From Bdellovibrionales bacterium (GTDB lineage Bacteria > Bdellovibrionota > Bdellovibrionia > Bdellovibrionales > UBA1609), in the NCBI GenBank assembly GCA_965116155.1, contig OZ220488.1, positions 1,496,318 through 1,560,317 on the forward strand: DNA of 64,000 nucleotides. Direction: 5' to 3'. Below the pieces are notes generated by a model. The model did not search any database and was not told the DNA's origin. It worked only from the letters and a program-made list of their open reading frames with translations. This document shows positions 11,441 to 61,158 of the stretch, piece by piece; position 1 is the first letter of the stretch; every line of letters begins with the position of its first letter. Made by a program: the position numbers and the translations under genes.

Positions 11441-11450
11441 GACAGCTATA

Positions 11451-21597: not shown

Positions 21598-21787
21598 CTT
21601 TGACTTGGCTCCTATCGCGGGCCTCTGGCTGGGTACTGGGCTCACTTGTACTTTGCGGAGACCTTTTGGGTCAATACGTGTTGCACTGTGCCTTGTCTCG
21701 ATGGCCACGGCCTCGTTATAAAATGGGGGGAGCTCGAAGGGGGCTAGTGCTGCGCGATAAACCGACTGACTTTTAGGGTAATGCCAA

Positions 21788-28346: not shown

Positions 28347-28356
28347 ATTAATTTAC

Positions 28357-28476
28357 GTTGGTATCGTGCTACTCTCGACACAGGCGTGAGCCTGCACTAC
28401 CATCACCGCAGGTGAGCTTAACTGCTGAGTTCGGAATGGGTTCAGGTGTACCCTCACCGCTATAAACACCAACAGG
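28357..28476 (-). rRNA. rrf: 5S ribosomal RNA, not adjacent to a 23S gene
   Basis: - strand reads cctgttggtgtttatagcggtgagggtacacctgaacccattccgaactcagcagttaagctcacctgcggtgatggtagtgcaggctcacgcctgtgtcgagagtagcacgataccaacg. It has CCGAACTCAG, GATGGTAGT and GAGAGTAG blocks, and helix I ttggt/accaa. Ends are +/- 3 nt. Confidence 0.9.
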
Positions 28477-29882: not shown

Positions 29883-29893
29883 AGTATTTGCAT

Positions 29894-31669
29894 ATGCCCA
29901 TGTTTATAAAAGCACTAAAATGCTTGTTCGCATGCTTGGCTTTATGTGTTAGCGCGTCAGCCTTCGCTAAGGATGATGTTGCAATTAACCATGCACCAGC
30001 TAAAGGCGCAGCAAAATGTGAGGAGCTGCTTAACCAACAACCTTACGGCCAAAAACCTTACGGCAAAATTATTAAACGCATGGCTGCGATCAAAATGCAG
30101 CTTAGTAAGAATGCGCTTGTGCATAAGGGCAAGCAATCTCAGCGCAAGGCTGAGGACATAGGCTTAAGGGTGGCTTATGATATTTTAGATAAGCAGCTTC
30201 AAGGGCAACTACCTAAAGAGCAATATGAAGCAGCGCTTATTGAAATAGAATCTTTGGTTTCAAAAGTGACTACAAAGCTTGAGGTGGATGAAAACAAAAA
30301 GCAAAAAACCTTAGCAGCGCTTCAGCACGAGCGCGCGGCGCTGATTAAAAATATAGAAACCTATGAAAGCAAAAGAAGGGATCTACTTCAGGGAGCGTTG
30401 GGTGAAGCTGTAAAAATGAAAAAATGGGATTTAAAGGTAAAGTTCGACGGTGCATATTGGAGAGTTCGCAGTGGGGCCATTTTAATATGGGACTATAGTA
30501 ATAGTAGCAACTCTGTTGCCTTAATTGATAACAAGGCAAGATTTCTGGATACAGATTCACCGTCTAAAGAAATCCCACTGTACTATAAGGGGGGCAGTTA
30601 TTTTGGTAATACGTTTAAGTTTTCATCTAGCAGTGACGCAGAAATTGGGGACATGGTCAGTAGTTATTCAATGCATAGGGTTAAACAGGCCTTTTTAAAC
30701 ACGGAAGCAAACCTTGTAATTTTTGATAAGGGTTACGAATACACGATTAATAATACAGGTAAAGTGATTGATAAAAAAAGAGTGTCTCAAACAATGCCCT
30801 TAGTGGGTTTTTCGCAGAGCCAAATAATGGTAGCAGACTTCAATGGCTCAAAACTTACCACAAAAGACACCGGCACAGGCAATGAGGAAAGTGTTGATCT
30901 AACTCGTTTTAGTATTTATGACGGCAGCAAGGAAAGAGAGGCAAGCCCACTTGAGTTTGACAGGGTTTTAAAAAAGATGTCAAAAAATACGGTACCTTTA
31001 TCTGTTGTAACAGACAGCAAGTTGATTGCTCTATATGAAAAGGATGCCTTTATTGTTGATAGCATGTCTGGGCATGCAAGATTAATTAATTTCTTTGAGC
31101 CTGAAAGCGTCCAGTATCGTCATAGAAAACAGTTGGTATCCGTTGATAGAGACGGAAACATTTATGGGACTTTTATAAAAAAAGGCGAAAAAGTTTTGGA
31201 GGTTTTTAAGTTTTCCCCAGAGTCCCAAACGCCTAATACAGCTGTTTATAAAACCACTTTGAAAATTGAACTTAATGCTTTTAATAGCGAAAATATATTT
31301 GATGATACTACTACTGTGGACTCAACAGGTCGTTACGTTATTGCCCTTGAAAGGGGGCCAAGTGCACCAGGGGTTTATCTGTATAGTATGGAGCTGGGTA
31401 TCAAACTAGGTAATACTTCTATATTAGAAGGCCTAACAGACCCGAGTGACGAGGTGATAGATGTGGTCAACCATGGTCAGAACCAGCTGATGTTCGTACT
31501 TGCCTCTGAAGATAATGAAAGCGGGCGTACGGTTTTTTATGTGTCTAGCGCTAAGTTTAATTTTAATGACAATAAACTCGGCGAAGTGGATAAAATCATC
31601 CACCAGATTGAAGAGGCAAAAGCTCAGCTACAAGATGTTGAGTTGAAACTTGCGGAGACAAGCAAGTAA
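29894..31669 (+). CDS. family-1 paralog c: secreted coiled-coil protein with a non-helical C-terminal body (591 aa)
   Basis: MPMFIKALKCLFACLALCVSASAFAKDD signal peptide and the same conserved blocks as paralogs a and b. Contains a 15-nt internal duplication (QQPYGQKPYG). Confidence 0.7.
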   Translation: MPMFIKALKCLFACLALCVSASAFAKDDVAINHAPAKGAAKCEELLNQQPYGQKPYGKIIKRMAAIKMQLSKNALVHKGKQSQRKAEDIGLRVAYDILDKQLQGQLPKEQYEAALIEIESLVSKVTTKLEVDENKKQKTLAALQHERAALIKNIETYESKRRDLLQGALGEAVKMKKWDLKVKFDGAYWRVRSGAILIWDYSNSSNSVALIDNKARFLDTDSPSKEIPLYYKGGSYFGNTFKFSSSSDAEIGDMVSSYSMHRVKQAFLNTEANLVIFDKGYEYTINNTGKVIDKKRVSQTMPLVGFSQSQIMVADFNGSKLTTKDTGTGNEESVDLTRFSIYDGSKEREASPLEFDRVLKKMSKNTVPLSVVTDSKLIALYEKDAFIVDSMSGHARLINFFEPESVQYRHRKQLVSVDRDGNIYGTFIKKGEKVLEVFKFSPESQTPNTAVYKTTLKIELNAFNSENIFDDTTTVDSTGRYVIALERGPSAPGVYLYSMELGIKLGNTSILEGLTDPSDEVIDVVNHGQNQLMFVLASEDNESGRTVFYVSSAKFNFNDNKLGEVDKIIHQIEEAKAQLQDVELKLAETSK

Positions 31670-31689
31670 GCATGAAAAAAGCGTCTAGG

Positions 31690-31987
31690 CTCTCTTTAAA
31701 AGCACGAGGCTTTGACGAGAGTGTCGCGGCCTTGGGCGTTGACGGGAGTGTGGTAAATCGAGTTTGCTCAGTTTGTCTTAGATTAAGCGCACTCGGACAC
31801 AGGCGTGGTTATTTGCCTAGGCCAACATTAGCCCCATTTCAGGTGCGCCGCTTTAACTCGATTTACAGGGCCATAAAAGCCTTATAGGTCGCAAAACAAA
31901 CTCGGGCCTTTCGTTTGTCCCAAGAATAGACGCGCCTGAGCTGCCCTTGGGACGGCACTTACTGGCCAAGTTTGTTTTACTAGCGCT
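31690..31987. repeat. mosaic repeat block (reverse module C, module F, module E, reverse module A)
   Basis: gcacgaggctttgacgagagtgtcgcggccttgg (31703-31737). gtgcgccgctttaactcgatttacagggccataaa (31843-31877) is also at 36947. ttataggtcgcaaaacaaactcgggcctttcgtttgtcccaag...cccttggga is also at 46985-47060. ctagcgctctaa lies at the right end. Confidence 0.8.
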
Positions 31988-32704
31988 CTAATCCTTTAAA
32001 AAAGCGTTCCATTCGGCGCTCCAAGGAGGCGGAAGGCTTTGGCACTGGTAGCTAAAATCTACCTCGTCTACGGGTTTCCAGTAGGATTGGGGACTGTAGA
32101 AGGTGTTAGGCTCATGGAATACGCGCTTTTGGTCCTCTGGGTCTAAGGGCTGCACAGAGACACGGCTTTTTTGGGTGTTTTTAGGGCCAAGCTCCACGCG
32201 GTTAGAGTGGGTTTTTTCTGCAGGGTGCAAATAGTACTCGTATACGCCGAGCCTTAGGGTTTGCTTGTCAAAAACAAAGGTCTTTAAGCCTCTAAAGAGC
32301 GCATAATGCCATACCATATAAGGGTGCTCGCCGACGCCTTTTTTTTCGTCTTCGCGGCTTAGTACGGTGCCATCAGGCAGTTCCCACTTGCCCATGGCGC
32401 TGCCTTGCACGATGGCGTACATGAGATACCGCTCGTCCTCTTGTGCTTGGTGCATATAATGACCGCCTTGCGTAAAGGGTGTAATAGGCTCTTTTTGAGC
32501 ATGCCGAAAATCAAACAAATGCATACCGCGCTTAATAGAGTTGTGCGAATGCAAAAGCAGCTCCCTATGGGGAGGGTTTTGTTGATTTTTGCACAAAAAA
32601 GCATCATCCGACCCCAGTACAGTAAAAAACCACATAAGGGTCGAGGCAATACTCTGCACGATGTTTTCTCCCCAGCCGGCCATATGCATGGCCGTATCGG
32701 TCAC
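31988..32704 (-). CDS. hypothetical protein (238 aa)
   Basis: ORF only, no recognisable motifs. Starts at GTG 32704, or at ATG 32689 or 32683. Divergent from family-2 paralog b. Confidence 0.45.
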   Translation of the reverse strand: MTDTAMHMAGWGENIVQSIASTLMWFFTVLGSDDAFLCKNQQNPPHRELLLHSHNSIKRGMHLFDFRHAQKEPITPFTQGGHYMHQAQEDERYLMYAIVQGSAMGKWELPDGTVLSREDEKKGVGEHPYMVWHYALFRGLKTFVFDKQTLRLGVYEYYLHPAEKTHSNRVELGPKNTQKSRVSVQPLDPEDQKRVFHEPNTFYSPQSYWKPVDEVDFSYQCQSLPPPWSAEWNAFLKD

Positions 32705-32950
32705 TTGAAGTTAGAGCGTTAGTCCAATATCCTGGGATTAAGCGTCGGCGTCCTGATAGCCTCTGGAAGAGGCGGCCATCAGGGCGCCAAGCGTCCCGCA
32801 GAATATTGGGCGGCCTATAAGGGATCTATGGCCCTGCGGCTTTGGGCGATTTTTAGGCCCAAGGCCGCGACGCTTACGTCAAAGCCCCGTGCATTGAGTA
32901 AGCCTAAGTTAGAGCGTTAGTCCAATACTCTGGGATTAAGTGCTGGATGA
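32705..32950. repeat. A-B-C repeat unit plus truncated second unit
   Basis: gttagagcgttag, hairpin B with core ctgatagcctctggaagaggcggccatcag (32753-32782), module C ctatggccctgcggctttggg..cccaaggccgcgac..cgtcaaagc..gtgcattgagtaag, then a second gttagagcgttagtccaatactctgggattaag truncated before the 32968 start. Confidence 0.85.
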
Positions 32951-32967
32951 TTAGGTGAGAGGCTGTT

Positions 32968-35094
32968 GTGGCGCAATTACGCAACATAATACTTGGCAAG
33001 GCCTTTGTGGCAGTGGTGGCAATTGGGGTTGTGGGCTGCAGCAGCGTGCCCCAGCGCGAGCCCCAACGCGTGCCCTTGTCGCAAGCCCAAGAGCAGCAAA
33101 ATGCGCAAATCCTTTTAGAGCGCCAATTTTTGCGTGAGCTGGGTACTAAAGTGCACTCTGTAGTAGAGGCGAACACTTTTTTACTAAGGCGCCTTTATGT
33201 TTGCGTAACCTATGCTCGCTACCATGCGCGCCCGTTGCCGGAGTTTGTAATGAGGGCAAGAGCCTTAGAGGTAGAAGATAATATGCGCCTTAGCGCGAGT
33301 GTGAGGAGCACTAATAGCTGGGGCTCTTTTGATAAAGACGATTTAAAACAGACCTGCCCGCAGTATTTTTATCAAGTACAGCAGATGTCTCAGCAAACCT
33401 ACCCTGCCATTAAAAAACTACTTGCTATGCATGGGGTTTTAAAAAAGCAAACCATGCAGCAGCTGTGGGGGCTGATGTTAAAAGAGCTACAGTACGCGCA
33501 TTTTAAAAAAACGGGCACTAAATTGAGTTATAGTTTAAAGCTTACAGCAGTAGAAACTCCAGCTGGCCCTACTGTTGGGCCTAGGCGCTGGGTGTATAAA
33601 AAAGCCAGCGCCCCAGCCAAGCTCCCTAAAAAGTGGGGCGTAGAGGGTGTGGATTTTTCGCCTCCCGTTAAGAGTAGCCATATAAACAATGTGTTTCATA
33701 ATATCGAAGGCTTAGAGTTTAGCGGGCTTGATATAGAGCGGTATGTGTTTGATAGTAACGCTAAAGAGCATGGCGCCATGCCGGGCAAGGTTGTGCCGGT
33801 GGGTTTTGGGCAAAACACACGCATGCTGCAGCCGCATCAAGCTGTTTATGCGCCTAAGGCTTTTAAAAATTATTGTGATGTATTTAATTTTAGCTTGCAC
33901 TGGGGTGAGGGCTCTAGGGCCCAGTGCCATGCGTACCATAAAACACTTTTAAAAGTAAGCCAGCATTTGGGCATTGCAGAGCACCAAGATCCAGATTACG
34001 CGCAAGCCGAAAGCGCATCTAAAGCGCGCTGCACGCAGGGTGAGGCGGTAGATAGTGTGCTGTTACAAAAAATCCAAAAGGCCGTGGATAAAAGCTGTGC
34101 CTTGTGGTCTGGGTTAAATTTTAACTACGATGTTAAAGCAAAAAAAAGAGTATTTAGTTTTGACTCAAAAAAATCGGCACAAAAATTATCAAAGCTCACT
34201 ACAAAAGAGTTAGAGCAGCTCTATTTGGTGGGGAGTGTGCTAAAGCAATTTTCTAACGAGTGGAGCTTTGATGAAATAAAAAAACACCAAAACCTTACTG
34301 GCCTCTGGGTTAAAGACACGCTAATTAACATGGTGGGGGCGGTGCCTTTTTTGGTTATGCTAAAAACCTTTGCCTTGCAGGATCTAGCGGATTGGCAAGA
34401 TGTATCGGATTTAAGAGGGCTGAGTGATAAAACCTGGCAAGATATGGAGCGTGTGTTTGCTTACAAGCTAAAGCGTGGGCATGCGTTGAGTGCACACACT
34501 CAGCAGCATATAAACGAGGCTCATTTGGATCTTATGCAGTTTGTACCCTTGGTTACAGACATGGTCCAAAATCCTCCACAAAGCTTTCTGGCGCAGGGCT
34601 TGAGTGCGGAGGGTGTTGAGCGTCTGGCTGCAGGTTTAACCAAGCGTTATGAGAGCCTGTGGCACCAGGGCAAAACTGTAGCGGTGCTTTTTATTGCGAC
34701 AATAGGTTTTTGTGCGGCTCCTTTTTCAAAAGCATTAAAGGCTTTCAAATTTGTTAAGGCCGCTGCCAAGGTGGAGAGTTTAAGGGCGTTGCCTGGCATA
34801 GGAGGGGCATTTTTTTCTTGTGGTTGGTCGTTTGATGTTGTGGCTAATGCGGGCTATTTTGTTTGGGCGGCTTATGATGGAGCCAAGGTAGTGGATGGGT
34901 TTTTATCTATGGGTAACAAGCTTGTGCGGTACGAAGATTTAGACCAAGTGCAAAAAGACGTCCTTTTTGAGATGGCATTTATGCCAGTGGGCATAGCTGG
35001 CACAACAAAGGCTGCGCGTGCGCTTCGTCAAAAGCTCCAAAAACAAAAACAAAAAGCCCACAAGGCCTTGCAAAAACTACGTGCGCCCAATTAG
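32968..35094 (+). CDS. family-2 paralog b: large lipoprotein with C-terminal transmembrane segments (708 aa)
   Basis: GTG start. AFVAVVAIGVVGCSS lipobox. Shares SQAQEQQNAQILLERQFLR, YPAIKK..VLKKQTMQQLW, HFKKTG.KL.Y, PFL.MLK...LQ.LA.WQD and WQDMERVF blocks with 12074..14311. Its stop codon lies inside module A. Confidence 0.7.
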   Translation: MAQLRNIILGKAFVAVVAIGVVGCSSVPQREPQRVPLSQAQEQQNAQILLERQFLRELGTKVHSVVEANTFLLRRLYVCVTYARYHARPLPEFVMRARALEVEDNMRLSASVRSTNSWGSFDKDDLKQTCPQYFYQVQQMSQQTYPAIKKLLAMHGVLKKQTMQQLWGLMLKELQYAHFKKTGTKLSYSLKLTAVETPAGPTVGPRRWVYKKASAPAKLPKKWGVEGVDFSPPVKSSHINNVFHNIEGLEFSGLDIERYVFDSNAKEHGAMPGKVVPVGFGQNTRMLQPHQAVYAPKAFKNYCDVFNFSLHWGEGSRAQCHAYHKTLLKVSQHLGIAEHQDPDYAQAESASKARCTQGEAVDSVLLQKIQKAVDKSCALWSGLNFNYDVKAKKRVFSFDSKKSAQKLSKLTTKELEQLYLVGSVLKQFSNEWSFDEIKKHQNLTGLWVKDTLINMVGAVPFLVMLKTFALQDLADWQDVSDLRGLSDKTWQDMERVFAYKLKRGHALSAHTQQHINEAHLDLMQFVPLVTDMVQNPPQSFLAQGLSAEGVERLAAGLTKRYESLWHQGKTVAVLFIATIGFCAAPFSKALKAFKFVKAAAKVESLRALPGIGGAFFSCGWSFDVVANAGYFVWAAYDGAKVVDGFLSMGNKLVRYEDLDQVQKDVLFEMAFMPVGIAGTTKAARALRQKLQKQKQKAHKALQKLRAPN

Positions 35095-35645
35095 AGTGTT
35101 AGCCCAATATTCTGGGATTAAGCGCTCGAGGCAAGAGCAGCACCCTGTAAGGGTGCGACCTATGAAGCTACTATGAGCCTGTAGCCTTGTGCGGTCTTTA
35201 GGCACAAGGTGACCAGATTGTCGCCAAAGCCTCGTGCGTTGAGTAAACACAAAGTTAAAGGACTAATAAAATTCTCTGGGATAAAGCGGCGGCACACTGA
35301 TAGCCCCAACGGGGCGGCCATCAGGGTGCCAAGCGTCCCGCAGAGAATTTTATGGGCTATACGGTATCTATGAGCCTGTAGCCTTGTGCGGTCTTTAGGC
35401 ACAAGGTGACCAGATTGTCGCCAAAGCCTCGTGCGTTGAGTAAACACAAAGTTAAAGGACTAATAAAATTCTCTGGGATAAAGCGGCGGCACACTGATAG
35501 CCCCAACGGGGCGGCCATCAGGGTGCCAAGCGTCCCGCAGAGAATTTTATGGGCTATACGGTATCTATGAGCCTGTAGCCTTGTGCGGTCTTTAGGCACA
35601 AGGTGACCAGATTGTCGCCAAAGCCTCGTGCGTTGAGTAAACCCT
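35092..35645. repeat. tandem array of the 197-bp A-B-C structured repeat (2.4 units)
   Basis: ctatgagcct recurs at 35171, 35368 and 35565, an exact 197-bp period. The units look identical by eye. Confidence 0.95.
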
Positions 35646-35695
35646 ACAAACCCCTTGTCCTTGTATGGTCTGGGTAGTTATATGGTTTAGCGAAA

Positions 35696-36946
35696 ATGAG
35701 AAAACTTTTAATCGCTTTTTTGGCTTTAGTTCTGTGCTCGTACGTTTGGGCTGAGGGGGTAGGGTATGAAGGGATTGGTAAAGGCACGCGCGATGACTAT
35801 TATTGGGGCAAGCCCCAAGCAGCTAGCGATCCAATAAACTTGCCGGATTCTGTTAAAAATATGCTGGATGAGGAGGTTTTGACAGGCGCTATGCTGCCTC
35901 TTTTTTGGGCCATTAAACACAAAGATTACGCTCTTGTAAAAACTTTGTTAAACCACAAAATAGACATCAATGCTCAAGATGCCCAGGGCCGCACGGCTCT
36001 TATGCAGGCGGTGCAAATGCCTAACTATGCAGATATTGAAACTTTGTTGGGCCATGTCGGCGTTGATATTAACCAAACAGACGACTATGGCAAAACGGCT
36101 CTTTTTTGGGCTGCGCAAAGGGGCCGGCTGCACTTTGTGAAAACTTTATTAAATAGTGGCATTGATGTTAACGCCAAAGACAAAGGTGGCGATACAGCGC
36201 TTATTTGGGCTGCGTATTACGGGCATGAAGAGTCTGTGCAAGCTCTTTTGTCTCATGAAGATATTGATGTTAACGCCAAGGACGATGCTGGCGATACAGC
36301 GCTTAGTTGGGCGGCGTATAACGGGCATGAAGAATCTGTGCAGGCCCTTTTGGCTCATGAAGATATTGATGTTAATGCCAAGGACAAAGATGGCAATACA
36401 GCGCTTATTTGGGCTGCGCGCAGAGGGGGTGAAGAATCTGTGCAAGCTCTTTTAGCTCATGAAGATATTGATGTTAATGCTAAGGGCGAATATGGCTATA
36501 CAGCTCTTATTGGGGCTGCGTATTACGGGCATGAAGAATCTGTGCAAGCTCTTTTAGCGCGTAAAGATATTGATGTTAATGCCAAGGACGATGCTGGCGA
36601 TACAGCGCTTATTAGGGCTGCGTATTACGGGTATGAAGAATCTGTGCAGGCGCTTTTAGCGCGTAAAGATACTGATGTTAACGCCAAGGACGATGCTGGC
36701 TATACAGCTCTTATTGGGGCTGCGTATTACGGGCATGAAGAATCTGTGCAAGCTCTTTTAGCCCATGAAGATATTGATATTAATGCCAAGGACAACGATG
36801 GCGAGACAGCTCTTGAGAGGGCGAAAAGCAAAGAAATTTCAGAGGCAATACACCTTGCCCTACAAGCCAGGGGCTTACAAGCTCATGCCGAATCATCGTG
36901 CGTAATCTTATTAAAGAGTATTAAAGAAATATGGTCTTCTCTCTGA
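35696..36946 (+). CDS. secreted ankyrin-repeat protein (416 aa, about 9 ANK repeats)
   Basis: Signal peptide MRKLLIAFLALVLCSYVWA, then repeated G.TAL..AA..GHEESVQALLAHEDIDVNAKD units. Confidence 0.85.
   Translation: MRKLLIAFLALVLCSYVWAEGVGYEGIGKGTRDDYYWGKPQAASDPINLPDSVKNMLDEEVLTGAMLPLFWAIKHKDYALVKTLLNHKIDINAQDAQGRTALMQAVQMPNYADIETLLGHVGVDINQTDDYGKTALFWAAQRGRLHFVKTLLNSGIDVNAKDKGGDTALIWAAYYGHEESVQALLSHEDIDVNAKDDAGDTALSWAAYNGHEESVQALLAHEDIDVNAKDKDGNTALIWAARRGGEESVQALLAHEDIDVNAKGEYGYTALIGAAYYGHEESVQALLARKDIDVNAKDDAGDTALIRAAYYGYEESVQALLARKDTDVNAKDDAGYTALIGAAYYGHEESVQALLAHEDIDINAKDNDGETALERAKSKEISEAIHLALQARGLQAHAESSCVILLKSIKEIWSSL
36188..36799 (+). repeat. intragenic 102-bp (34-aa) tandem repeat x6
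   Basis: aa 165-368 of the ankyrin protein are six consecutive 34-aa units. They differ mainly at a few positions (IW/SW/IG/IR, YY/YN/RR, SHE/AHE/ARK). Confidence 0.9.
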
Positions 36947-37204
36947 GTGCGCCGCTTTAACTCGATTTACAGGGCCATAAATAGCTGTCTAGCGCGCAAT
37001 ATTACCTTGAAGCCTACGTTTGCCATCTTGGCTAATGCCCTATGGGCAGCCAAGATGGCTGCACTCTCAGGTTCAAGGGTAACATTGCTGGCGCTTTTAT
37101 GCTTACGCCAGCTGCATAGACCGCCAAAACACCTTGTTATTCCGCTTGCCTGCAGCACATAAAGGTGCTTAAGCAGGCGGCACTTCATACAAGAGGTGTT
37201 TTGG
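36947..37204. repeat. mosaic repeat block (module F, family-D hairpin element, family-H hairpin)
   Basis: gtgcgccgctttaactcgatttacagggccataaa, then the D element 36983-37108 (agctgtctagcgcgcaa ... gctggcgcttttatgcttacgc), then the H hairpin 37123-37205. Confidence 0.85.
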
Positions 37205-38554
37205 CTAGTCTGTAATTTTCTTCCATGGGGCAACGACACTAAGTAAAAGCATGCCAGGCAAGGCCATAAAAAAGCACAAAATAAAAAACCTCGTCCACCC
37301 GAGCCCACCGAAGTTGCCGATCCAGCTAAAAGCTTGCCAAAAGCTCTCAGGAGCCAGCTTAGACCAGTCCCACCCATCTACCAAAAAGCCCGTAGACATA
37401 CTGGCGGCATTGCGCGGCAAGGCCATAATGCTGGTAAGCAGCGCCATTTGCGTGGCAGTGAAGTTTTTGTTTGTACTGCGCGCCATAAAGGCCAACAGAG
37501 CCGCAGAGCCCAAGCCCGCAGCAAAATACTCCCCCATAACCACAACACCCAAAACCCACAACTGCGGCACGGTGCTCAGCCATGCAAAACCCAAAATGGT
37601 CAGCATTTGCACAAAGCCAAACACCCACAAGGATTTATTAATCCCCAGGCGCAGCATCATAAGCCCCCCCACAAAACCGCCCGAAAGCACACTAGCCACG
37701 CTGACCAGTTTTACAATGCTGCCGATATGGGTCTTAGTAAAACCCATATCCAGAAAAAAAGGCGTCTGCAGGGCCGTTGCCATGTTGTCACCCAGTTTAT
37801 AAAGCATAATAAAAAACAAAACCCCCAATGCCCCCCCAAAAGCTCCGCGGGCCTGGCCGTGCTTGTGCCCAAAAAAATCCCTAAAAGGCTCCACAATAGC
37901 CGCCAAAAGGCTGCCTGGCACCTTTACCCCTTGGGTGATTTCTTTAATCAACAAACTATGCAGCACACCTATGCCCATAAAAAGAGCCATCACCATATGC
38001 GTTTGAGACCAGCTGATGTGGTCTGCTAGCACTAGCCCCAGCCCGCCGGGCACAAAGCCTGCTACTCTATAGGCATTGGCATAAAAGCTGTTCCCCAAGC
38101 CGAGCTCGTTGTCTGGTAGCAGCTCGCGCCTGTAAGCATCGAGGGCAATGTCCTGTATGGCCGACCAGAGGGTCACTAAGGTCACAGCTGCGGCGATAAA
38201 ACGTATATCTCCTGTGGGGTCAAGGCTTGCGCAGCCCAGCATGCCGGCAATGCAGCCCATTTGCGCTATAAGCATCCAGCTGCGTCTGCGCCCTAGAGGC
38301 GAAAGCCTATACCGATCGCATAGGGGCGCAATTAAAAACTTAAAACTCCAAAAAATTCCTAAGCCCGTTACGAGCGAAATCGCCTGCAAACTTGCGCCCT
38401 CATCCCGCATCCAGGCAGGTACAAACTGATAAAAATAATAAAGCGGCAAGCCAGCCGAAAAGCCATTAACAGCACACACCAGCATGCGGCGTAGCGATTG
38501 GGGCTCGAGGTGGAGTTTTTTTAAAAGATTTTGGCCCATTTTTTCCCAATACAA
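37205..38554 (-). CDS. ampG: AmpG-family MFS muropeptide permease
   Basis: 449 aa with about 12-14 hydrophobic segments. N-terminal GFSAGLPLYY..... and LGRRRSWML motifs resemble AmpG/SLC33-type MFS proteins. Confidence 0.65.
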   Translation of the reverse strand: MYWEKMGQNLLKKLHLEPQSLRRMLVCAVNGFSAGLPLYYFYQFVPAWMRDEGASLQAISLVTGLGIFWSFKFLIAPLCDRYRLSPLGRRRSWMLIAQMGCIAGMLGCASLDPTGDIRFIAAAVTLVTLWSAIQDIALDAYRRELLPDNELGLGNSFYANAYRVAGFVPGGLGLVLADHISWSQTHMVMALFMGIGVLHSLLIKEITQGVKVPGSLLAAIVEPFRDFFGHKHGQARGAFGGALGVLFFIMLYKLGDNMATALQTPFFLDMGFTKTHIGSIVKLVSVASVLSGGFVGGLMMLRLGINKSLWVFGFVQMLTILGFAWLSTVPQLWVLGVVVMGEYFAAGLGSAALLAFMARSTNKNFTATQMALLTSIMALPRNAASMSTGFLVDGWDWSKLAPESFWQAFSWIGNFGGLGWTRFFILCFFMALPGMLLLSVVAPWKKITD

Positions 38555-39030: not shown

Positions 39031-39061
39031 CAGTGTACTCGTTAAGATACAGTATTAAAAC

Positions 39062-39120
39062 CCTAATGTGGCATGAGTACGCGCCAGCCGGAAGCCGGAG
39101 GACATACTTCAGTCACGACT
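39062..39120. repeat. solo right half of the 51654-51797 MITE-like element
   Basis: taatgtggcatgagtacgcgccagccggaagccggaggacatacttcagtcacga compares with taatatggtatgagagctcgccagccggaagccggagaacatacttcagtcacga at 51748-51802. Confidence 0.75.
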
Positions 39121-45714: not shown

Positions 45715-46134
45715 GTGGAGCCTATAAAGCTAAACCTGTCGGCATTAGAGAAAACCATTAAATCACTGGAGCGCTCTTTAGAGCTTTGTGATGAGTTTAA
45801 GGGTACAAAGAAGCTGCAAGAGGCTTTGCGAGAGAGTGTTATTCAGTCGTTTGAGGTGTGTTATGAGGTTGCGCGCAGATTAATGTTTCGGTACCTAAAA
45901 CAGGCCACAGATGAGCGCGTGGATGAGATGGCGGTGCATGATGTGTTTAGGCTGGGGCATAGGAGTGGAATTTTGTCTCATGTATCTAGCTGGTTTGAGT
46001 ATAGAAAAAAAAGAAACCTAACCAGCCATATTTATAATGCCGATATAGCGGAAGAGGTTTTTTGTGCAGCGGCGCCTTTTTTAAAGGATGCTAAGTTTTT
46101 GTTAAAAAAATTAGAGGAAAAGATTGAAGCTTGA
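45715..46134 (+). CDS. hepT: HI0074-family nucleotidyltransferase substrate-binding (HEPN) protein, putative type VII toxin
   Basis: 139 aa. LS.LEK.IKSLE..LE start and the helical pattern typical of HI0074-like proteins; R....H-like RNLTSH near the C-terminus. Paired with an MNT gene. Confidence 0.7.
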   Translation: MEPIKLNLSALEKTIKSLERSLELCDEFKGTKKLQEALRESVIQSFEVCYEVARRLMFRYLKQATDERVDEMAVHDVFRLGHRSGILSHVSSWFEYRKKRNLTSHIYNADIAEEVFCAAAPFLKDAKFLLKKLEEKIEA

Positions 46135-46423
46135 TCTAGCGCCGCGCTATGAGGAGGCGGTTAAAAAAATTTTTCTTCGGCACTTGCCCCATGCTAAGGT
46201 GTGGGCTTTTGGCTCTCGGGTGAGTGGGTCTGCTGTAGAGACTTCCGATTTGGACCTTGTAATTGTTGCGGACGAAAAAACAAACTTTAAAGCGCTTAGC
46301 TTGTTGCAGGTGGATTTTGAGGAGTCCGACATCCCCTTTAAGGTGGATGTTTTGGACTGGCAGCGGCTTTCTGCAGACTTTCAAAAAGTCATCAAAAACC
46401 AATACATTGTTTTTATAAGTTAG
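46124..46423 (+). CDS. mntA: minimal nucleotidyltransferase (MNT), putative antitoxin
   Basis: 99 aa. GSRVSGSAVETSDLDLVIV (G-S ... D-x-D polymerase-beta-type motif). TTG start overlaps the HEPN gene by 11 nt. Confidence 0.75.
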   Translation: MKLDLAPRYEEAVKKIFLRHLPHAKVWAFGSRVSGSAVETSDLDLVIVADEKTNFKALSLLQVDFEESDIPFKVDVLDWQRLSADFQKVIKNQYIVFIS

Positions 46424-46835
46424 TGCGTAAGCATTAGAGCGCTAGGAAAATGCCCTGGGATAAAGCGCAGTCTCTAGCGCAACCCCCTTTAGGGGGTGTC
46501 CGCGATAGAGACAAGTGTCCCGCAGGGCATTTTCCGACCTATGAAGCTACTATGGCCCTGCGGCTTTGGATGTCCTAGGTCCAAAGCCGCGACACTTCCG
46601 TCAAAGTTCCGTGCGTTGAGTAAACACAAATTAGAGCGCTAGCCTAATATTCTGGGCAAAGCGCAGTCTCCCTGATAGCGCCTGAAAGGCGCGGCCATCA
46701 GGGAGATAAGCGCCCCACAGAATATTAGGCGGCCTATAAGGGATCTATGGCCCTGCGGCTTTGGATGTCCTAGGTCCAAAGCCGCGACACTTCCGTCAAA
46801 GTTCCGTGCGTTGAGTAAACACAAATTAGAGCGCT
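46424..46835. repeat. two tandem A-B-C repeat units
   Basis: Module C plus A (ctatggccctgcggctttggatgtcctaggtccaaagccgcgacacttccgtcaaagttccgtgcgttgagtaaacacaaattagagcgctag) is identical in both units. Hairpin B differs almost completely (ggaaaatgccctggga... versus cctaatattctgggc...). Confidence 0.9.
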
Positions 46836-46959
46836 AGTAAAATAAAATGGGGCAATAAGAGCCAACCTCAGAACAGCCTCTTTAAGACTGGCATATGTCC
46901 TGTGGACGATTCTGGGGCGCCTTGCTTGAGCTGCAGGGGTGTGGTGATAGCAGGAGCTC

Positions 46960-47810
46960 AGGTAGACGGATGGCTTGTAGTAGCTTTATAGGCCGCAAAA
47001 CAAACTCGGGCCTTTCGTTTGTCCCAAGGATAGACGCGCCTGAGCTGCCCTTGGGACTGCACTTTCTGGCAAGAGGTGTCCATGGCGTTAAGTTAATCTG
47101 GCAGCTTAGGTCACGCCTTGGTTTATCGCGATCAATAAAGCCCGGACGCAGGCGACATTGTTTTTCTCGGCTTATATAAATCGCACTTGCGGGTACGGGC
47201 TTAGACCTAACCTGCAGGGCCATAGACAGCTTCATAGACCGCCAAAACACCTCTTGGCTTTCCGCTTGCCTGGAGCACCCAAGGGTGCTCATCAGGCTGC
47301 GCTTCCAGCAAGAGGTGTCCATGGCGTTAAGTTAATCTGGCAGCTTAGGTCATGCCTTGGTTTATCGCGATCAATAAAGCCCGGACGCAGGCGACATTGT
47401 TTTTCTCGGCTTATATAAATCGCACTTGCGGGTACGGGCTTAGACCTAACCTGCAGGGCCATAGACAGCTTCATAGACCGCCAAAACACCTCTTGGCTTT
47501 CCGCTTGCCTGGAGCACCCAAGGGTGCTCATCAGGCTGCGCTTCCAGCAAGAGGTGTCCATGGCGTTAAGTTAATCTGGCAGCTTAGGTCACGCCTTGGT
47601 TTATCGCGATCAATAAAGCCCGGACGCAGGCGACATTGTTTTTCTCGGCTTATATAAATCGCACTTGCGGGTACGGGCTTAGACCTAACCTGCAGGGCCA
47701 TAGACAGCTTCATAGACCGCCAAAACACCTCTTGGCTTTCCGCTTGCCTGGAGCACCCAAGGGTGCTCATCAGGCTGCGCTTCCAGCAAGAGGTGTTTTG
47801 GCTAGTCTGT
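46960..47810. repeat. module E followed by a 239-bp tandem repeat x3 (47071-47787)
   Basis: aagaggtgtc recurs at 47071, 47310 and 47549, with aagaggtgtt at 47788, giving a 239-bp period. Units are near-identical (for example tcacgcc / tcatgcc / tcacgcc). Each ends in a family-H hairpin. Confidence 0.95.
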
Positions 47811-47821
47811 AACTTTAACTT

Positions 47822-47898
<77 letters not shown>

Positions 47899-47913
47899 CT
47901 TCGTATAATAATT

Positions 47914-48783
47914 CTACTTAAGGCCCACAATATAAGCCACCCAAGAATCCACCTCCTCCTGCGTAGCTTCGCATGCAGCAAAATCTCCACTCCCCTCGCC
48001 CTCTGGCGTAGTACCTTCCCAGTACACCAAGCAGCGTTTGAACCCAACCTCTAAAAGAATATCCTTCAGCTCACGCATTCCCCAAAGGCGCCAATCGTAC
48101 TCGAACACCTTTTCATACTTGCGCCCCTTGAAGGGCCGAAAATGTATCCAAAACTTCCCCTCTTGATTAATGGGGTCATAAAAATCCTGATCCCAATAAT
48201 AGGTGAACTTATTGCCATGGCGCGTAGACTCCTCCACTGCACCCATAACATCTCTACCACCAAAACAGTCTAAAACAAAAATGCCATCCCTCTTTAAGCG
48301 CCGCAAGCTAGAGGCAAAATAAGCCCGCATTTGAGCGCGCTCCTTTAGCACAAAATAAGAAAAATTCTGCGCCACCACAATATCTAAACCCCCAGGTAGG
48401 TCTTGATCTAACACACTTGCTCTGCACAATTGCAGGCGTGATTTTTCGTCCTTGCTTAGCTCGGCTCCATAAACCCGTTGCCCATAATCCAAAGGCTCCT
48501 GGTCCATGTCCACACCCACAGCTCTTCTATGAGCGCCTGCCTTTATCCACTCGCAACTAATTGCAAAAGTCCCGCAAAAATCCTCCCCCAATCGTTGGGC
48601 AGGTTTATTGCGCAGGTCTTTATAAGCCTGATCCAAAAACTCCACATCCCTCTCCGGCGATTGCACAGCTTCACGATAATAAGCGTACTTATCAAAAACT
48701 TTGCCCAAACCCGATGTGCCTTTACGCCGCCGAACCATGGCCTGTTGTATTAACACACTCAGAACCTTAATGCCATGCATCAA
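47914..48783 (-). CDS. class I SAM-dependent methyltransferase
   Basis: 289 aa. LGEDFCGTFAIS (motif I-like) followed by VGVDMD (acidic motif II). Substrate unknown. Confidence 0.6.
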   Translation of the reverse strand: MMHGIKVLSVLIQQAMVRRRKGTSGLGKVFDKYAYYREAVQSPERDVEFLDQAYKDLRNKPAQRLGEDFCGTFAISCEWIKAGAHRRAVGVDMDQEPLDYGQRVYGAELSKDEKSRLQLCRASVLDQDLPGGLDIVVAQNFSYFVLKERAQMRAYFASSLRRLKRDGIFVLDCFGGRDVMGAVEESTRHGNKFTYYWDQDFYDPINQEGKFWIHFRPFKGRKYEKVFEYDWRLWGMRELKDILLEVGFKRCLVYWEGTTPEGEGSGDFAACEATQEEVDSWVAYIVGLK

Positions 48784-51552: not shown

Positions 51553-51824
51553 TGGTAGTATAAAAAGCATGCAAAATGAGAGGTTCTCTCTGGGGGGTCC
51601 TATAGTGCACGAAATATGTAACTTGTCGCAGGTTTAAGTATTAGCCCTTGTGCACTGAAGTATGTTCTCCGGCTGACTCTGGCGCAAGTTAGGGCGCTAG
51701 ACAGCTAAAAGGCATCTATGTGCCTGTAAGACATATTGTCAAAGCTCTAATATGGTATGAGAGCTCGCCAGCCGGAAGCCGGAGAACATACTTCAGTCAC
51801 GATGTGGTAGTATAAAAAGCATGC
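51553..51824. repeat. 252-bp insert bounded by 20-bp direct repeats
   Basis: tggtagtataaaaagcatgc occurs at 51553-51572 and 51805-51824. The second copy contains the ATG of the TPR gene. Confidence 0.85.
51654..51797. mobile_element. MITE-like 144-bp element with perfect 20-bp terminal inverted repeats
   Basis: actgaagtatgttctccggc (51654-51673) is the exact reverse complement of gccggagaacatacttcagt (51778-51797). The interior carries reverse family-D flank gcgctagacagct. Confidence 0.55.
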
Positions 51825-57851: not shown

Positions 57852-58601
57852 CTAAAAAAACTCTTTTAACCCTTTTAATACCTTGGGGCTTAGCTCGTGC
57901 CCTCCCTCAAAGGGAACAAACTCCACCGATAGGACTTTTTGTTCTAAAAGGCTCTTAAGTTTAAGGGCGAGCTCAAAATCTAAAACCTCATCCCCTTTGC
58001 CATGCGACAAAAACACTCTAACACCCTTAAGACGGTTCAGGTTCTTTTGCCACAGTGTACGACAGATTAGGGTGCCAGAACAAAGCGCCAAGCCATCTAG
58101 CGGCAAATGCGCAAAATGCATTAGCGCCATATGCACTGACAAAATTGCCCCCTGGCTAAAGCCTCCCAGTACAAAGCGAGGCGGAGCGTCGGCGCGCGCA
58201 AACAAAGCCGCCAAAGCCTCTGACACCTGCTTGCAACTTTGGTCTAAGCCCTCAGGGTGCATGTGCTCTATTTTGCTTAAAAGCTCTGCCCGGGGCATGG
58301 TTTCAAACTCGCGAATACTAAACGGGTACCAGGCTCTGCCATACAAAGCCCCTCCCAAAGGGACCTTATAAGGCCCGTTTAAAAACATCCAGCTGCCGGG
58401 TTTGTTTTCAAAATGCCTCGCAAAAAAACTCAAATCACGGTAGTTGGCTCCATAGCCATGGAAAATCACGCGCACCACCACGGGCCCTGTGCTAGCAGCG
58501 GCCCACTCGTGCAAAGGCAAAGCGGGGTGCAAAAGGCAATCCATCCCACAGAGGGTGTCTTTGTACAAAAAATCACGCACCAAAGTGCTCTTCTTGTTCA
58601 T
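57852..58601 (-). CDS. alpha/beta hydrolase, phospholipase/carboxylesterase family
   Basis: FHGYGAN, nucleophile elbow GGFSQGA, late GKGDEV and GGHE blocks (Ser-Asp-His order). Confidence 0.7.
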   Translation of the reverse strand: MNKKSTLVRDFLYKDTLCGMDCLLHPALPLHEWAAASTGPVVVRVIFHGYGANYRDLSFFARHFENKPGSWMFLNGPYKVPLGGALYGRAWYPFSIREFETMPRAELLSKIEHMHPEGLDQSCKQVSEALAALFARADAPPRFVLGGFSQGAILSVHMALMHFAHLPLDGLALCSGTLICRTLWQKNLNRLKGVRVFLSHGKGDEVLDFELALKLKSLLEQKVLSVEFVPFEGGHELSPKVLKGLKEFF

Positions 58602-59961
58602 GGGCCAACAAACGCGCCCTAGCGTAGTAGCTTTTGTGGGGAGATAGCTGCAGAAAGTGTTTTATCTCTGACATATAAATACAAGCGTAGCGCTCCACCT
58701 GATAGGCCAAGTAGCTGTCTTCGTATTGGGCTTTCATAAGTTCTCCCCAGTAGGGGTTAAAGCATGCATGCAGGGCGTCGGATTTTTCAGTAATTGCAGT
58801 GTCGAGCAGTTGGTGTTTTTTTAACTCTGCACCTAGTAGCTCAGGGTTTGTAGGCTCGGTGCTAGCCAGGCTTTCTAGTTGACTAAGATTATGCTCGCAT
58901 TGCAGCTTTTGCTGGGTGAGGTCATGTATTGCTCTGCGTATCGGTGCGCTTTGGGCGAGTTTTAAAATTTCGTCCTCTAGCTCTTCTACTACAAGAGCCG
59001 TGCGCCAGGCGCACTCTTTTTTTAGCCTTACGACATCGCCATAAATGTGGTCTCCCACATACAAAATGTCATTAGGTAGCAGCTTGAGCTCTTTTGTAAA
59101 AGCCGTGGCGCAGCCTCCATAGTATATGCCGGGGCTGAGCTTGTGCACCTGGGAGCTCAAGTGACCACTTTTAGGATCGATGCGTAAAAATGGCAGCTCG
59201 TCATAAAAAAAGCGCGGCTTCACAGCATCAGTAATGACGTACTCAAAAAGCTCCTGCCAGTCTTTGTGCTCCTTTAAATAGGGGTTCAGGGTATGGTCTA
59301 GCAGGGTGCGCGTGTAAGCATAGTGCGAATTGGTGAGGAGGAAGATTTTTTTTCCCGACCTCTTAAGTCGCTCCAAACCCTCAGCCACACTGGGCTCTGC
59401 TGTGACATAACGGTCTAAATCCAAGGCGACTTTGTCCTTTAAAACTCCGCTCCTATGGGCGAGCTCGAGCGCCTGGTTAACATCGTCGGCAATTTCTTTG
59501 TAAGTGGGCATAGCAGACTTAGAATGAGCGTCTTTAAACTCCACCAAGCGGGCATAGATAGAAGTAAAAGCCAAAGAAAACGCGGTATCTACCGTAAGGT
59601 ACATGGAGTCTTTAAGGTCTATATAACTGCCGCTGTAGATGCTGCTGTGTTCGTCAGGGTGCATGCGCCGGGTGCCATGGTAACTAATGGCAATGGCTCC
59701 ATGGCGGCTAAGCTTGAGCAAGTTGCCGCGTATAGGGTCGATCACCAACCCCCGGATCGCACGTTGAAAATCCATTTTAAACCCCAGCACTTCCTCAGGG
59801 TAAAAGAGCTTTTTAACCAGGTAGTCTATAATGGTGTCATGCGTGAGCTGCTCAAAGCTGCGGGTTTTGTATTTGACCAGCGTGTGGTCCATGTCGAAGC
59901 CTACGCACTTAATGCGGCGCATATTTAGATATCTGTTTACATAAACTTTATTAGAGGACAT
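58573..59961 (-). CDS. HAD-IG family 5'-nucleotidase (cN-II-like)
   Basis: VYVNR.L.M..IKCVGFDMDHTLVKY (DxDxT), LLTNS, YVGDHIYGDV. Length 462 aa. Confidence 0.8.
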   Translation of the reverse strand: MSSNKVYVNRYLNMRRIKCVGFDMDHTLVKYKTRSFEQLTHDTIIDYLVKKLFYPEEVLGFKMDFQRAIRGLVIDPIRGNLLKLSRHGAIAISYHGTRRMHPDEHSSIYSGSYIDLKDSMYLTVDTAFSLAFTSIYARLVEFKDAHSKSAMPTYKEIADDVNQALELAHRSGVLKDKVALDLDRYVTAEPSVAEGLERLKRSGKKIFLLTNSHYAYTRTLLDHTLNPYLKEHKDWQELFEYVITDAVKPRFFYDELPFLRIDPKSGHLSSQVHKLSPGIYYGGCATAFTKELKLLPNDILYVGDHIYGDVVRLKKECAWRTALVVEELEDEILKLAQSAPIRRAIHDLTQQKLQCEHNLSQLESLASTEPTNPELLGAELKKHQLLDTAITEKSDALHACFNPYWGELMKAQYEDSYLAYQVERYACIYMSEIKHFLQLSPHKSYYARARLLAHEQEEHFGA

Positions 59962-60135: not shown

Positions 60136-61158
60136 TTGTTAAATGGTATACAGTTTATAGAGTATTCTTCTTCAGATCCTGAGGCTTTAGAGGCCTTGTT
60201 TAAGCAGTTGGGTTTTGCGTGTACCCATCGCAGCCGTGTGCAGCAGGTGGATGTATACTCGCAGGGCAGGATGCATTTTTTGCTAAACAAGCGCGAGAGC
60301 TCTTTTGCGGGCAAATTTGCCGCGCAGCATGGGCCTAGCATTGCCTCTGTGGGCTTTTTTGTAGATGACCCTGCGGGTGCTAAGGCTAAGGCTCAAGAGC
60401 GTGGGGCAAGGCCCTTAGAGGACAAGGGCGCGGCGTTTTTGCAACCTCCAGCAGTGTATGGCGTGGGCGATTCGCTTATGTACTTTGTAAAAGGCAGCGA
60501 GGGGGACTTTGCTTTGGATTCTGTGGTGGAGGGCTTGGAGCCTGTGCAGGGCGCGCCTCAGGGAGCAGGGGCGGGCTTGGATCGCATTGATCACCTAACT
60601 AACAATGTGCCGGTTAACCAAATGGACAGGTGGTGCGCGTTTTATAGCAAGGTGTTTGGTTTTAGGCAGGTGCGGGAGTTTAAAATCGAAGGGCAGCAAA
60701 CGGGTTTGGTTTCGAAGGTGATGGTTTCAGAAAACTCCAAGGTGATTATTCCGGTTAATGAGCCTCGGGGGGAGAAGTCACAAATACAAGAGTACATTGA
60801 TACCTACAAGGGTTCTGGGGTGCAGCATGTGGCTTTAAGCAGTAAGGGCATAGTGCAGAGCGTGGAGTGGTTGAGGTCGAAGGATGTGCATTTTTTAAAA
60901 GTTCCCGACACCTATTACGAGGCTTTGCCGCGCAGGTTAAGTGGGATCAAAGAGAATTTGGCAGACTTGCAAAAAAACCGCATCCTGGCAGATGGTGATG
61001 ACGAGGGTTATTTGCTGCAGATATTTACCCAAAATGTGGTGGGGCCGATTTTTTACGAAATCATCGAGCGTCATAGCCATGATGGTTTTGGCGAGGGGAA
61101 TTTTCAGGCCTTGTTTGACAGTATGGAAGAAGACCAGCGCCGTAGGGGGTATTTGTAA
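60136..61158 (+). CDS. hppD: 4-hydroxyphenylpyruvate dioxygenase
   Basis: TTG start. IDHLTNNV, GVQHVAL, and EIIERHSHDGFGEGNFQALFDSMEEDQ.RRG, the characteristic HppD C-terminus. Confidence 0.88.
   Translation: MLNGIQFIEYSSSDPEALEALFKQLGFACTHRSRVQQVDVYSQGRMHFLLNKRESSFAGKFAAQHGPSIASVGFFVDDPAGAKAKAQERGARPLEDKGAAFLQPPAVYGVGDSLMYFVKGSEGDFALDSVVEGLEPVQGAPQGAGAGLDRIDHLTNNVPVNQMDRWCAFYSKVFGFRQVREFKIEGQQTGLVSKVMVSENSKVIIPVNEPRGEKSQIQEYIDTYKGSGVQHVALSSKGIVQSVEWLRSKDVHFLKVPDTYYEALPRRLSGIKENLADLQKNRILADGDDEGYLLQIFTQNVVGPIFYEIIERHSHDGFGEGNFQALFDSMEEDQRRRGYL

Follow-up and report, generated by a model that had tools for sequence, protein, structure and literature searches.

The 64-kb stretch of a Bdellovibrionales genome considered here (64,000 nucleotides, referred to as the window) contains, in region 46424-46850, two repeat units that lie directly 3' of a HEPN-like/MNT gene pair. 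These units—U1 (46434-46642, plus strand) and U2 (46631-46837, plus strand)—are arranged head to tail and belong to a mosaic, composite, structured intergenic repeat family, in which a short module A is followed by a long hairpin B, a linker L, and a module C. Their parts are listed below with the evidence for each, where R1 denotes a covariance model of A-B-L that was run on the window, with sense-strand matches counted.

45715-46134, plus strand: HEPN-like gene (NTase_sub_bind; Pfam PF08780, E 2.3e-28), upstream context
46124-46423, plus strand: minimal nucleotidyltransferase (MNT) gene (Pfam PF18765/PF01909), whose stop TAG (46421-46423) lies within a degenerate A
46420-46433, plus strand: degenerate A (TTAGTGCGTAAG, 9/12 matches to A) followed by CA (sequence)
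46434-46445, plus strand: module A copy 1 (TTAGAGCGCTAG) (alignment)
46445-46535, plus strand: module B of U1, a three-helix hairpin of subtype B1b with inner motif GCGCA...GTCCGCGAT (fold; R1, 121 bits)
46536-46549, plus strand: linker L1 (GACCTATGAAGCTA), the same as in the first unit at 35 kb
46550-46625, plus strand: module C copy 1, 76 nt, with its own hairpin at 46560-46590 and conserved CGTCAAAG...CGTGCGTTGAGTAAAC (alignment)
46626-46642, plus strand: spacer ACAAA and module A copy 2, closing the first 93-nt block (alignment)
46643-46729, plus strand: module B of U2, a three-helix hairpin of subtype B1a with inner motif CTGATAGC...GGCCATCAG (fold; R1, 126 bits)
46730-46744, plus strand: linker L2 (C GGCCTATAAGGGAT), the same as in the element at 32.7 kb
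46745-46820, plus strand: module C copy 2, with 100% identity to copy 1 (alignment)
46821-46837, plus strand: spacer ACAAA and module A copy 3, closing the second identical block (alignment)
46838-46863, plus strand: 5'-arm remnant of a third B (TAAAATAAAATGGGGCAATAAGAGCC); the element at 32.7 kb ends with the same architecture

An earlier note on this DNA described two tandem units that share a letter-identical stretch, which is borne out by the pairwise alignment of U1 and U2: the identity is exact, while the length, given there as ~88 nt, is 93 nt (93 consecutive identical columns, 46550-46642 = 46745-46837). It comprises the 76-nt C, the spacer ACAAA, and the 12-nt A. The A preceding each B is also identical between both units, and a third identical copy (46826-46837) is followed merely by a stub of the B 5' arm. 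In U1, the first G of B doubles as the last base of A, the prefix TGCGTAAGCA ahead of A (46420-46433 region) is common to the unit at 11.1 kb, and the hairpin of C is preceded by GCGG, where other copies have GTAG.

Folding and homology of the B hairpins

The sequences quoted in the earlier note for the B modules (46445-46535 and 46643-46729) are exact, and both fold, as it held, into long hairpins, with -51.2 kcal/mol and z -7.0 for U1, and -50.6 kcal/mol and z -8.4 for U2 (z-scores computed against dinucleotide shuffles). Its view of them as unrelated, on the other hand, does not stand, as both belong to one three-helix family with shared loops and compensated pair changes. Together with the linker, they are identical at 60/104 positions (58%), including the exact 13-mer AAAGCGCAGTCTC, a global identity barely higher than that of shuffled sequences (mean 50%, maximum 58%). 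The blocks CTGGG-(A)YAAAGCGCAGTCTC and GAGAYAAGYGYCCCRCAG are common to both, and one and the same covariance model scores the two hairpins at the bit values listed above. These shared blocks, the same three-helix architecture, and a consensus structure with compensatory changes show that the B hairpins of U1 and U2 are homologous and of common ancestry.

The structure common to both hairpins comprises 35 pairs: 16 are unchanged, 5 have a substitution in one partner only, and in the remaining 14 both partners are changed, with the pairing kept throughout (14/14). Unpaired columns are identical more often (19/27) than paired ones (33/64), and the bases found at the differences are G (12), C (11), T (11), and A (7). 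In the consensus structure obtained with RNAalifold from seven copies, which also has 35 pairs, compensatory double changes are present in 27/35; pairing is found in 94.2% of cells, compared to 71.9% after column shuffling and ~40% after shifting the partner by 1–3 columns. The closest relatives of each hairpin lie at other loci, at 11.1 kb for the B of U1 (67%), and at 32.7 kb (74%) and 35 kb (72%) for that of U2. The compensated differences are best read as the outcome of a constraint on hairpin shape together with an old divergence of subtypes, and not of rewriting in place, of which there is no indication.

The repeat family and the exchange of its modules

The family covers roughly 4.2 kb of the 64 kb (~6.5%), distributed over about a dozen intergenic regions. 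R1 yields 18 matches, with plus-strand starts at 10787, 11119, 32711, 35091, 35255, 35452, 46434, and 46631, and minus-strand matches at 15813, 31870, 36974, 37102, 46974, 47219, 47458, 47697, 48883, and 57026. Their common grammar is an A (TTARAGNGCTAG), a B of 82-94 nt folded as a three-helix hairpin, a linker with a junction box (GRCCTATRARG NNN CTATGRSCCTG), and a C. Several B subtypes are found among these matches (B1a, B1b, B2, B3, and others), all of which have an outer and an inner stem in common, together with an AAGYG/AAGYG internal region. At least three types of C exist. C1 bears a short hairpin tagged GTAG/GYRG, while C2 makes up the body of the 239-nt repeat found after the tRNA-Ile gene on the minus strand. 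Since the C1 pattern has 8 exact matches in the window (8 full copies, in addition to 3 partial ones) versus 0 in 100 shuffles, the pattern seen in U1 and U2 is not a product of chance. The C1 hairpin also covaries, with 5/12 pairs changed on both sides and 95% of cells paired across 5 distinct copies. Other members of the family and one neighbouring gene are the following.

46974-47816, minus strand: convergent array, consisting of an A variant (TTACAGACTAG), three 239-nt units (B2 hairpin - linker - C2), and then a B3-type hairpin (sequence, R1)
47822-47898, minus strand: tRNA-Ile(GAT) gene; the minus-strand array begins 9 nt past its 3' end
35091-35648, plus strand: sister array, A-B'-L1 and then 2.4 copies of a 197-nt unit (C-A'-B1a-L3) (sequence)
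32711-32947, plus strand: single element A-B1a-L2-C-A-B5', collinear with U2 plus the remnant
10787-11460, plus strand: array with A-B2-L, a long hairpin, prefix-A-B1b-L joined to a C2-type module, and then a diverged C1
57026-57147, minus strand: single A-B copy after an rpoZ-like open reading frame (ORF), whose stop TAA is positions 2-4 of A (R1, sequence)

Within each array, all hairpins have the same orientation, head to tail. About 6 array regions lie on the plus strand and 7 on the minus strand of a single replichore, as the cumulative GC skew rises across the window. Many copies are truncated or internally deleted, and those without a B are all deletion derivatives that retain a stub of a B arm. 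For annotation purposes, the family accounts for the spurious ORFs 46639-46824, 46882-47322, 47292-47561, and 47531-47866, as well as for gene ends within repeats.

Some further sequences accompany these arrays. Inside the 10.8-11.5 kb array there is another long inverted repeat (10895-11040, plus strand; AACTGGCATATACTCTTGGGCC ... GGCCCAAGAGTATATGCCAGT), to which the fragment GACTGGCATATGTCC at ~46905 is related, at the meeting point of the plus- and minus-strand arrays. A 35-nt block (GTGCGCCGCTTTAACTCGATTTACAGGGCCATAAA), part of a C3-type module, is 100% identical at 31843-31877 and 36947-36981, and the latter copy lies immediately next to the stop codon of a convergent ankyrin gene (35696-36946).

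The comparison of B, L, and C between arrays reveals how these units were assembled. C1 modules from different arrays are 61-82% identical, and B modules 72-76% within B1a, 80-86% within B2, and about 51-67% between subtypes. Because C varies between arrays as much as B does, there is no general rule of a conserved C and a hypervariable B; the systematic feature is the identity of C within an array, which reaches 100% in both arrays with more than one C1. The closest relative of the 46 kb C variant elsewhere in the window is 82% identical. At 35 kb, the array combines three 100% identical C copies with two kinds of B modules: the gene-proximal B is of a different, truncated kind (42% identical), whereas the two distal units are identical throughout, B included. 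The 197-nt repeat of this array begins and ends at C borders, in exactly 2.4 copies. In the convergent array, the three 239-nt tandem units (47064-47796, minus strand) are 99% identical.

The linker tracks B rather than C. L1 is 100% identical in U1 and the first 35 kb unit, the C modules of which are 68% identical, and L2 is identical in U2 and the 32.7 kb element. Moreover, U2 and the terminal A-B stub are collinear with the whole of the 32.7 kb element (~80% of columns identical), whereas the collinearity of the U1 prefix-A-B1b-L with the 11.1 kb unit extends as far as ...GCTACTAT; past ...CTACTAT, a C2-type module follows in the 11.1 kb unit, and C1 in U1. In the same way, the partner of B2-L differs from locus to locus: C2 at 47 kb, another long hairpin at 10.9 kb, and an additional A-B unit at 37.1 kb. 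Deletion derivatives are joined at short shared motifs, such as TGGG at 15.8 kb and TATGAAGC, common to B2 and L1, at 11.37 kb. Module exchange at conserved borders, tandem amplification, and microhomology deletions are thus all directly visible in the sequence.

As the earlier note argued, duplication followed by drift cannot explain the pair, given that the linker follows B and that both units are collinear with different loci. The modular shuffling it proposed is likewise upheld by the swaps at the L-C border: since U2 is collinear with the 32.7 kb element and the A-B-L of U1 with the 11.1 kb unit, where it sits on a different C, both module shuffling and a local duplication or conversion are supported, the latter because identical C copies recur within arrays (46 kb, 35 kb). 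Under this scheme, U2 would be an ordinary element of the 32.7 kb type, whereas the A-B-L of U1 would belong to the 11.1 kb type. Either a recent local duplication or gene conversion between neighbouring units would have given rise to the 93-nt C-A block; in the latter case, the tract would end where the diverged B-L removes the homology. B would still fold because the shape of the hairpin is constrained and its internal loops are kept, while the arrays as such would change by tandem amplification, microhomology deletions, and module exchange at the conserved borders.

Array position and a possible gene-end role

Every array whose A end faces a gene begins at the very end of that gene. The stop codon is formed by positions 2-4 of A (T-TAG/T-TAA) in the genes ending at 10790, 15853 (minus strand), 31988 (minus strand), 35094, and 57144 (minus strand), and occupies the same positions inside the degenerate A in the MNT gene ending at 46423. 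In the gene ending at 37205 (minus strand), the stop is the last TAG of the A variant, while that of a MurF-like gene (19754) is a TGA inside CTATGAGCC of a C module. Because the upstream sequence is unrelated between loci, TTAR is taken as the left boundary of the family. Beyond protein genes, arrays begin 9-10 nt past the tRNA-Ile (47822) and 5S rRNA (28356) genes. Two arrays are located in divergent promoter regions (32.7 kb and 48.9 kb). With regard to orientation, the informative cases are the same-direction regions at 10.8, 28.3, and 35.1 kb, together with the zero distance to the stop codon.

In 7/12 distinct B hairpins, by the authors' own count, the 3' arm terminates in TTTT or TTTTT. 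An intrinsic terminator is a short, GC-rich stem-loop with a U tract right behind it; in B, the T tract pairs with the 5' A tract, and the hairpin is 3-4 times the size of a usual terminator. A terminator scanner run on 46424-46850 called no B hairpin, and canonical short terminators are no commoner than in shuffles (29 vs 29.6, 28 vs 26.1). No promoter or terminator signals framing the 46 kb units were found. In window positions 1-40000, neither the sigma-70 promoter consensus nor the intrinsic terminator pattern is matched more often than in shuffled sequence, and the organism may use other promoter and terminator signals.

From this arrangement, A-B can be envisaged as a portable gene end, made up of a stop codon and a large hairpin, often with UUUU at the end of its 3' arm. 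The hairpin might act as the 3'-end structure of the transcript, either as a terminator or as a stabiliser, and possibly also as a structure read by a hairpin-recognising transposase. A role at the transcript 3' end would be consistent with the stop codon in A, the stable B with its T run, the arrays following genes, and the lack of a terminator excess. Taken as a whole, the explanation considered probable, although far from certain, is a mosaic repeat family placed at gene ends, shaped by local copying and the mixing of modules, and with a role at the ends of genes.

Several points weigh against this explanation. The region read is the 64-kb window, ~4% of a 1.61-Mb genome represented by a contig of 1,611,223 bp, and only two arrays in it have more than one copy of C1. 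Local conversion is indistinguishable from the joining of two elements that already shared C, and RecA would act poorly in converting C copies with ~80% identity over 76 nt. The ~40 window ORFs that were scanned include no transposase, integrase, or RAYT gene. Between convergent genes, an array necessarily has the orientation of the gene next to its A end, and its orientation is of little informative value there. The B hairpins are far larger than known terminators or repetitive extragenic palindromes (REPs). Finally, with respect to a role as RNA, the opposite-strand versions of both B modules fold equally well, and G-U pairs are about equally frequent on each strand (20 vs 22 in minimum-free-energy folds).

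As a natural system, the family lends itself well to studies on the assembly of mosaic repeats and the maintenance of their folds, as it brings together the anchoring on stop codons, large and freely covarying hairpins, and exchange, amplification, and deletions. It could also reveal whether such repeats act as gene-end signals in a genome without an excess of canonical terminators. A directed rewriting of B would have been remarkable, but it is not supported.

Alternative explanations and related systems

A cassette- or transposon-like shuffling has been considered as an alternative, albeit an unlikely one. Here, a structure-recognising recombinase (an HUH/Y1 enzyme of the RAYT or IS200/IS605 kind, or an integrase) would read B and cut at TTAR on the left and at CTAT/CTATG at the L-C junction, moving A-B-L or C-A as units. 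The combination of conserved asymmetric internal loops and freely covarying stems in B argues for it, a pattern known from attC sites and IS200/IS605 hairpins. These hairpins, as well as those of PATEs, are recognised by their shape, and resemble B in their freely varying sequences and conserved unpaired bases. The same pattern holds for REP hairpins with RAYT (PMC3333891, PMC3733652). The C1 hairpin with its GTAG/GYRG tag (PMC3733652) points in the same direction, together with the module swaps exactly at the L-C border and the sharp TTAR left boundary, flanked by unrelated upstream sequence at every independent locus. IS608 likewise has its left boundary at a short specific motif, TTAC and similar, as the family has at TTAR. 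Contrary to this proposal, none of the scanned ORFs encodes such an enzyme, there is no clean empty site (every copy without a B keeps its B-arm remnant), and the arrays are placed on both strands of one replichore with no replication-strand bias. IS200/IS605 elements, in contrast, have a lagging-strand bias. In addition, the R boxes of attC (AAC/GTT) are absent, and the length of the conserved junction boxes would suffice for ordinary recombination by short homology.

A related and equally doubtful proposal is that A-B-L is the recognition structure of an undescribed mobile or recombination system in a host-associated lineage of bacteria that branches deeply, a portable gene end that would be placed precisely at TTAR stops, with modules swapped at fixed junctions and the hairpin read by its shape, like attC and the ends of IS200/IS605. 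The family differs from attC and IS200/IS605 systems in having no AAC/GTT R boxes, no integrase or TnpA gene in the window, and copies on both strands, and from integron cassettes in that the hairpin, expected to travel with the cassette, is not seen to do so.

Slightly less probable still is that two independent elements already shared their C. Master copies with an identical C-A and a different B-L would have landed or fused head to tail, and the identity of C would reflect their young age rather than a local duplication or conversion. This would agree with the collinearity of U1 and U2, each with a complete element elsewhere, with the elements whose ends consist of A and a B 5'-arm stub, which would permit a tail-to-head fusion via A, and with the existence of other recent copies that are 99-100% identical. 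However, the window holds no other copy of the 46 kb C variant (the closest is 82% identical), and an identical C with a different B recurs at 35 kb with an array-specific C, a recurrence that a local process fits better.

It is improbable that the units are an array of functional noncoding RNA genes or RNAs derived from 3' untranslated regions, with C as the constant part and B as a variable specificity hairpin. The strong structural covariation in B and C, the conserved loops and variable stems of B, and the location of units directly after, and co-oriented with, protein genes, the tRNA gene, and the 5S rRNA gene speak in its favour, while no Rfam family was found even at E <= 1, no promoter or terminator signal surrounds the units, their pairing has no strand asymmetry, C varies between arrays (61-82%), and the many truncated or internally deleted copies are those expected of decaying repeats.

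Lastly, the targeted diversification of B put forward in the earlier note, which would take place on site by the mutagenesis of a diversity-generating retroelement or another programmed mechanism that protects C, is very improbable, as it has in its favour a local contrast only (C 100% versus B plus linker 58%), whereas the differences involve all four bases, all 14 double changes preserve pairing, the B modules of U1 and U2 are different subtypes that occur at other loci, where closer relatives of each are found, C diverges between arrays as much as B in the module-by-module comparison within the window, a result that speaks against it by the earlier note's own standard, the two distal B modules at 35 kb are 100% identical, and the window has neither a reverse transcriptase nor a template/variable repeat pair.

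Other candidates were rejected. The four-base, pair-compensated substitutions and the lack of a reverse transcriptase in the window do not correspond to a diversity-generating retroelement, the substitutions of which are specific to adenine. An integron attC, with its R'' (RYYYAAC) and R' (GTTRRRY) boxes, is discarded by outer B stems that read AAT...ATT and not AAC...GTT, by the lack of an integrase, and by units without any Pfam-matching ORF, and an integron array by the dispersal of the arrays on both strands among housekeeping genes. In the case of CRISPR, known for repeats of 23-55 nt and unique spacers that lack structure, the repeat would be 93 nt long and its "spacers" would be homologous structured hairpins that recur elsewhere; neither cas domains among the scanned ORFs nor a CRISPR family in the Rfam output were found. 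A ribozyme or satellite reading was rejected as well, as was a small protein encoded in the units, since the ORFs across the arrays have no Pfam match.

The comparison with miniature inverted-repeat transposable elements, which have terminal inverted repeats, a target-site duplication of constant length, and empty sites, points both ways: the hairpin arms could serve as inverted repeats, while no consistent duplication flanks B or the units, save TTAA...TTAA at 57 kb, and the copies without a B retain a stub of its arm.

Returning to the mosaic repeat family, searches for relatives point to a restricted distribution. Only 5S rRNA and tRNA pass in Rfam across the window, and permissive searches gave nothing meaningful at E <= 10 (46300-48000) or at E <= 1 (31600-37300, 10700-11600). 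An exact-pattern scan for the C motif in one genome per GTDB species retrieved two matches, both due to chance and inside coding sequence. Scans of JGI metagenomes for the C motif and the B motif gave 0 matches each, as did that of IMG/VR for the B motif; plasmids and phages had no match by blastn, and nhmmer with five units detected none in 55 kb from the loci of the closest protein relatives. To judge from these searches, the family is apparently confined to this genome and would represent a new repeat family within the known class of structured mosaic intergenic repeats.

Composite intergenic repeats with a modular build are also known from Streptococcus pneumoniae, whose BOX elements are composed of boxA, boxB, and boxC modules, the middle one varying in copy number. 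By analogy, both families are intergenic and composite, with three kinds of modules, a varying middle module, and a stable predicted fold, although they have no sequence relation, and here B varies in subtype with compensated stems and the arrays sit on stop codons. A second analogy is provided by the mycobacterial interspersed repetitive units (MIRUs) of Mycobacterium tuberculosis, which Supply et al. reportedly described in 1997 as tandem intergenic repeats oriented with genes and overlapping the upstream stop codon with their ends. MIRUs are units of 40-100 bp without large hairpins, and their short ORFs couple translation in an operon. They resemble the present family in being tandem, intergenic, oriented with the flanking genes, and in the overlap with stop codons; unlike them, the units described here are ~200 nt long, dominated by hairpins, and located mostly between convergent genes.

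Among known repeats, the family most resembles the class of REPs and bacterial interspersed mosaic elements (BIMEs). Members of the GTAG-tagged REP superfamily (Di Nocera et al. 2013; PMC3733652) have a tag with GYRG degeneracy, fall into subfamilies by complementary changes in the stem, and occur in clusters repeated in tandem, and REPs are associated with RAYTs (PMC2817692, PMC3333891). Like the family described here, REPs and BIMEs are species-specific, extragenic, and mostly downstream of genes, have hairpin subfamilies set by complementary changes in the stem, form clusters reiterated in tandem with flanking DNA, and build mosaics of hairpins and linker motifs (here L1, L2, and L3). The likeness may extend to the tag of C1, whose hairpin (stem of 8-12 bp) is preceded by GTAG in the 35, 19, 15, and 11 kb copies, and by GCGG in those at 46 and 32 kb, both of which fit the GYRG form of the REP tag (PMC3733652). 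With a 12-column stem and a 7-9 nt loop, C1 also has the dimensions of a REP palindrome (20-40 bp, stem of 6-13 bp).

Clear differences are also evident. The tag of REPs is unpaired, whereas that of C1 largely pairs with a 3' TGAC/CCGC. B, with 82-94 nt, three helices, and conserved internal loops, is not a palindrome of 20-40 bp. The REPs of BIMEs alternate in orientation, while the units of this family run head to tail, and the coincidence of the array start with a stop codon sets the family apart from REPs and BIMEs. No match to the RAYT/Y1_Tnp family was obtained among the ~40 ORFs of the window, which represents 4% of the genome.

Regarding the genomic setting, the best database matches of MurE and a secretin encoded in the window are only 41-43% identical, and the few named ones come from Chlamydiota, Planctomycetes, Omnitrophota, and Bdellovibrionota. 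The 5S rRNA gene (28356-28473, minus strand) and the tRNA-Ile(GAT) gene (47822-47898, minus strand) are isolated, and arrays of the repeat family follow both of them. No 16S or 23S rRNA gene is found in the 64 kb, and therefore the rRNA operon appears fragmented.

Several large paralogous proteins without any Pfam domain are encoded at 19873-21708 (minus strand), 26423-28147 (minus strand), and 29867-31669 (plus strand), and also at 11999-14311 and 32968-35094 (both plus strand). The first three are mutually 43% identical, and a search with the 611-aa paralogue against a collection of 5.8 billion proteins recovered only the three window copies and no homologue outside this genome. They are likely to be lineage-specific surface or effector proteins. 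Ankyrin-repeat proteins, a eukaryote-type cytosolic 5'-nucleotidase (PF05761), and HPPD are found among the products of 8832-10790, 35696-36946, 58573-59961, and 60136-61158, a gene content that suggests a host-associated lifestyle; one of the ankyrin-repeat genes carries a tandem repeat of 102 nt x 6 (36059-36868).

Finally, a leader of ~76 nt, with no match in Rfam, is present upstream of two unrelated genes, at 39043-39118 and 51727-51802 (plus strand), with 83% identity between both copies. The genes that follow it encode an FAD/NAD oxidoreductase (39125) and a TPR protein (51821). The leader includes 32 consecutive columns that are identical bar one mismatch (CGCCAGCCGGAAGCCGGAG.ACATACTTCAGTCACGA). 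It contains TGGCAT/TGGTAT and might represent a sigma-54-type promoter or a shared regulatory leader.

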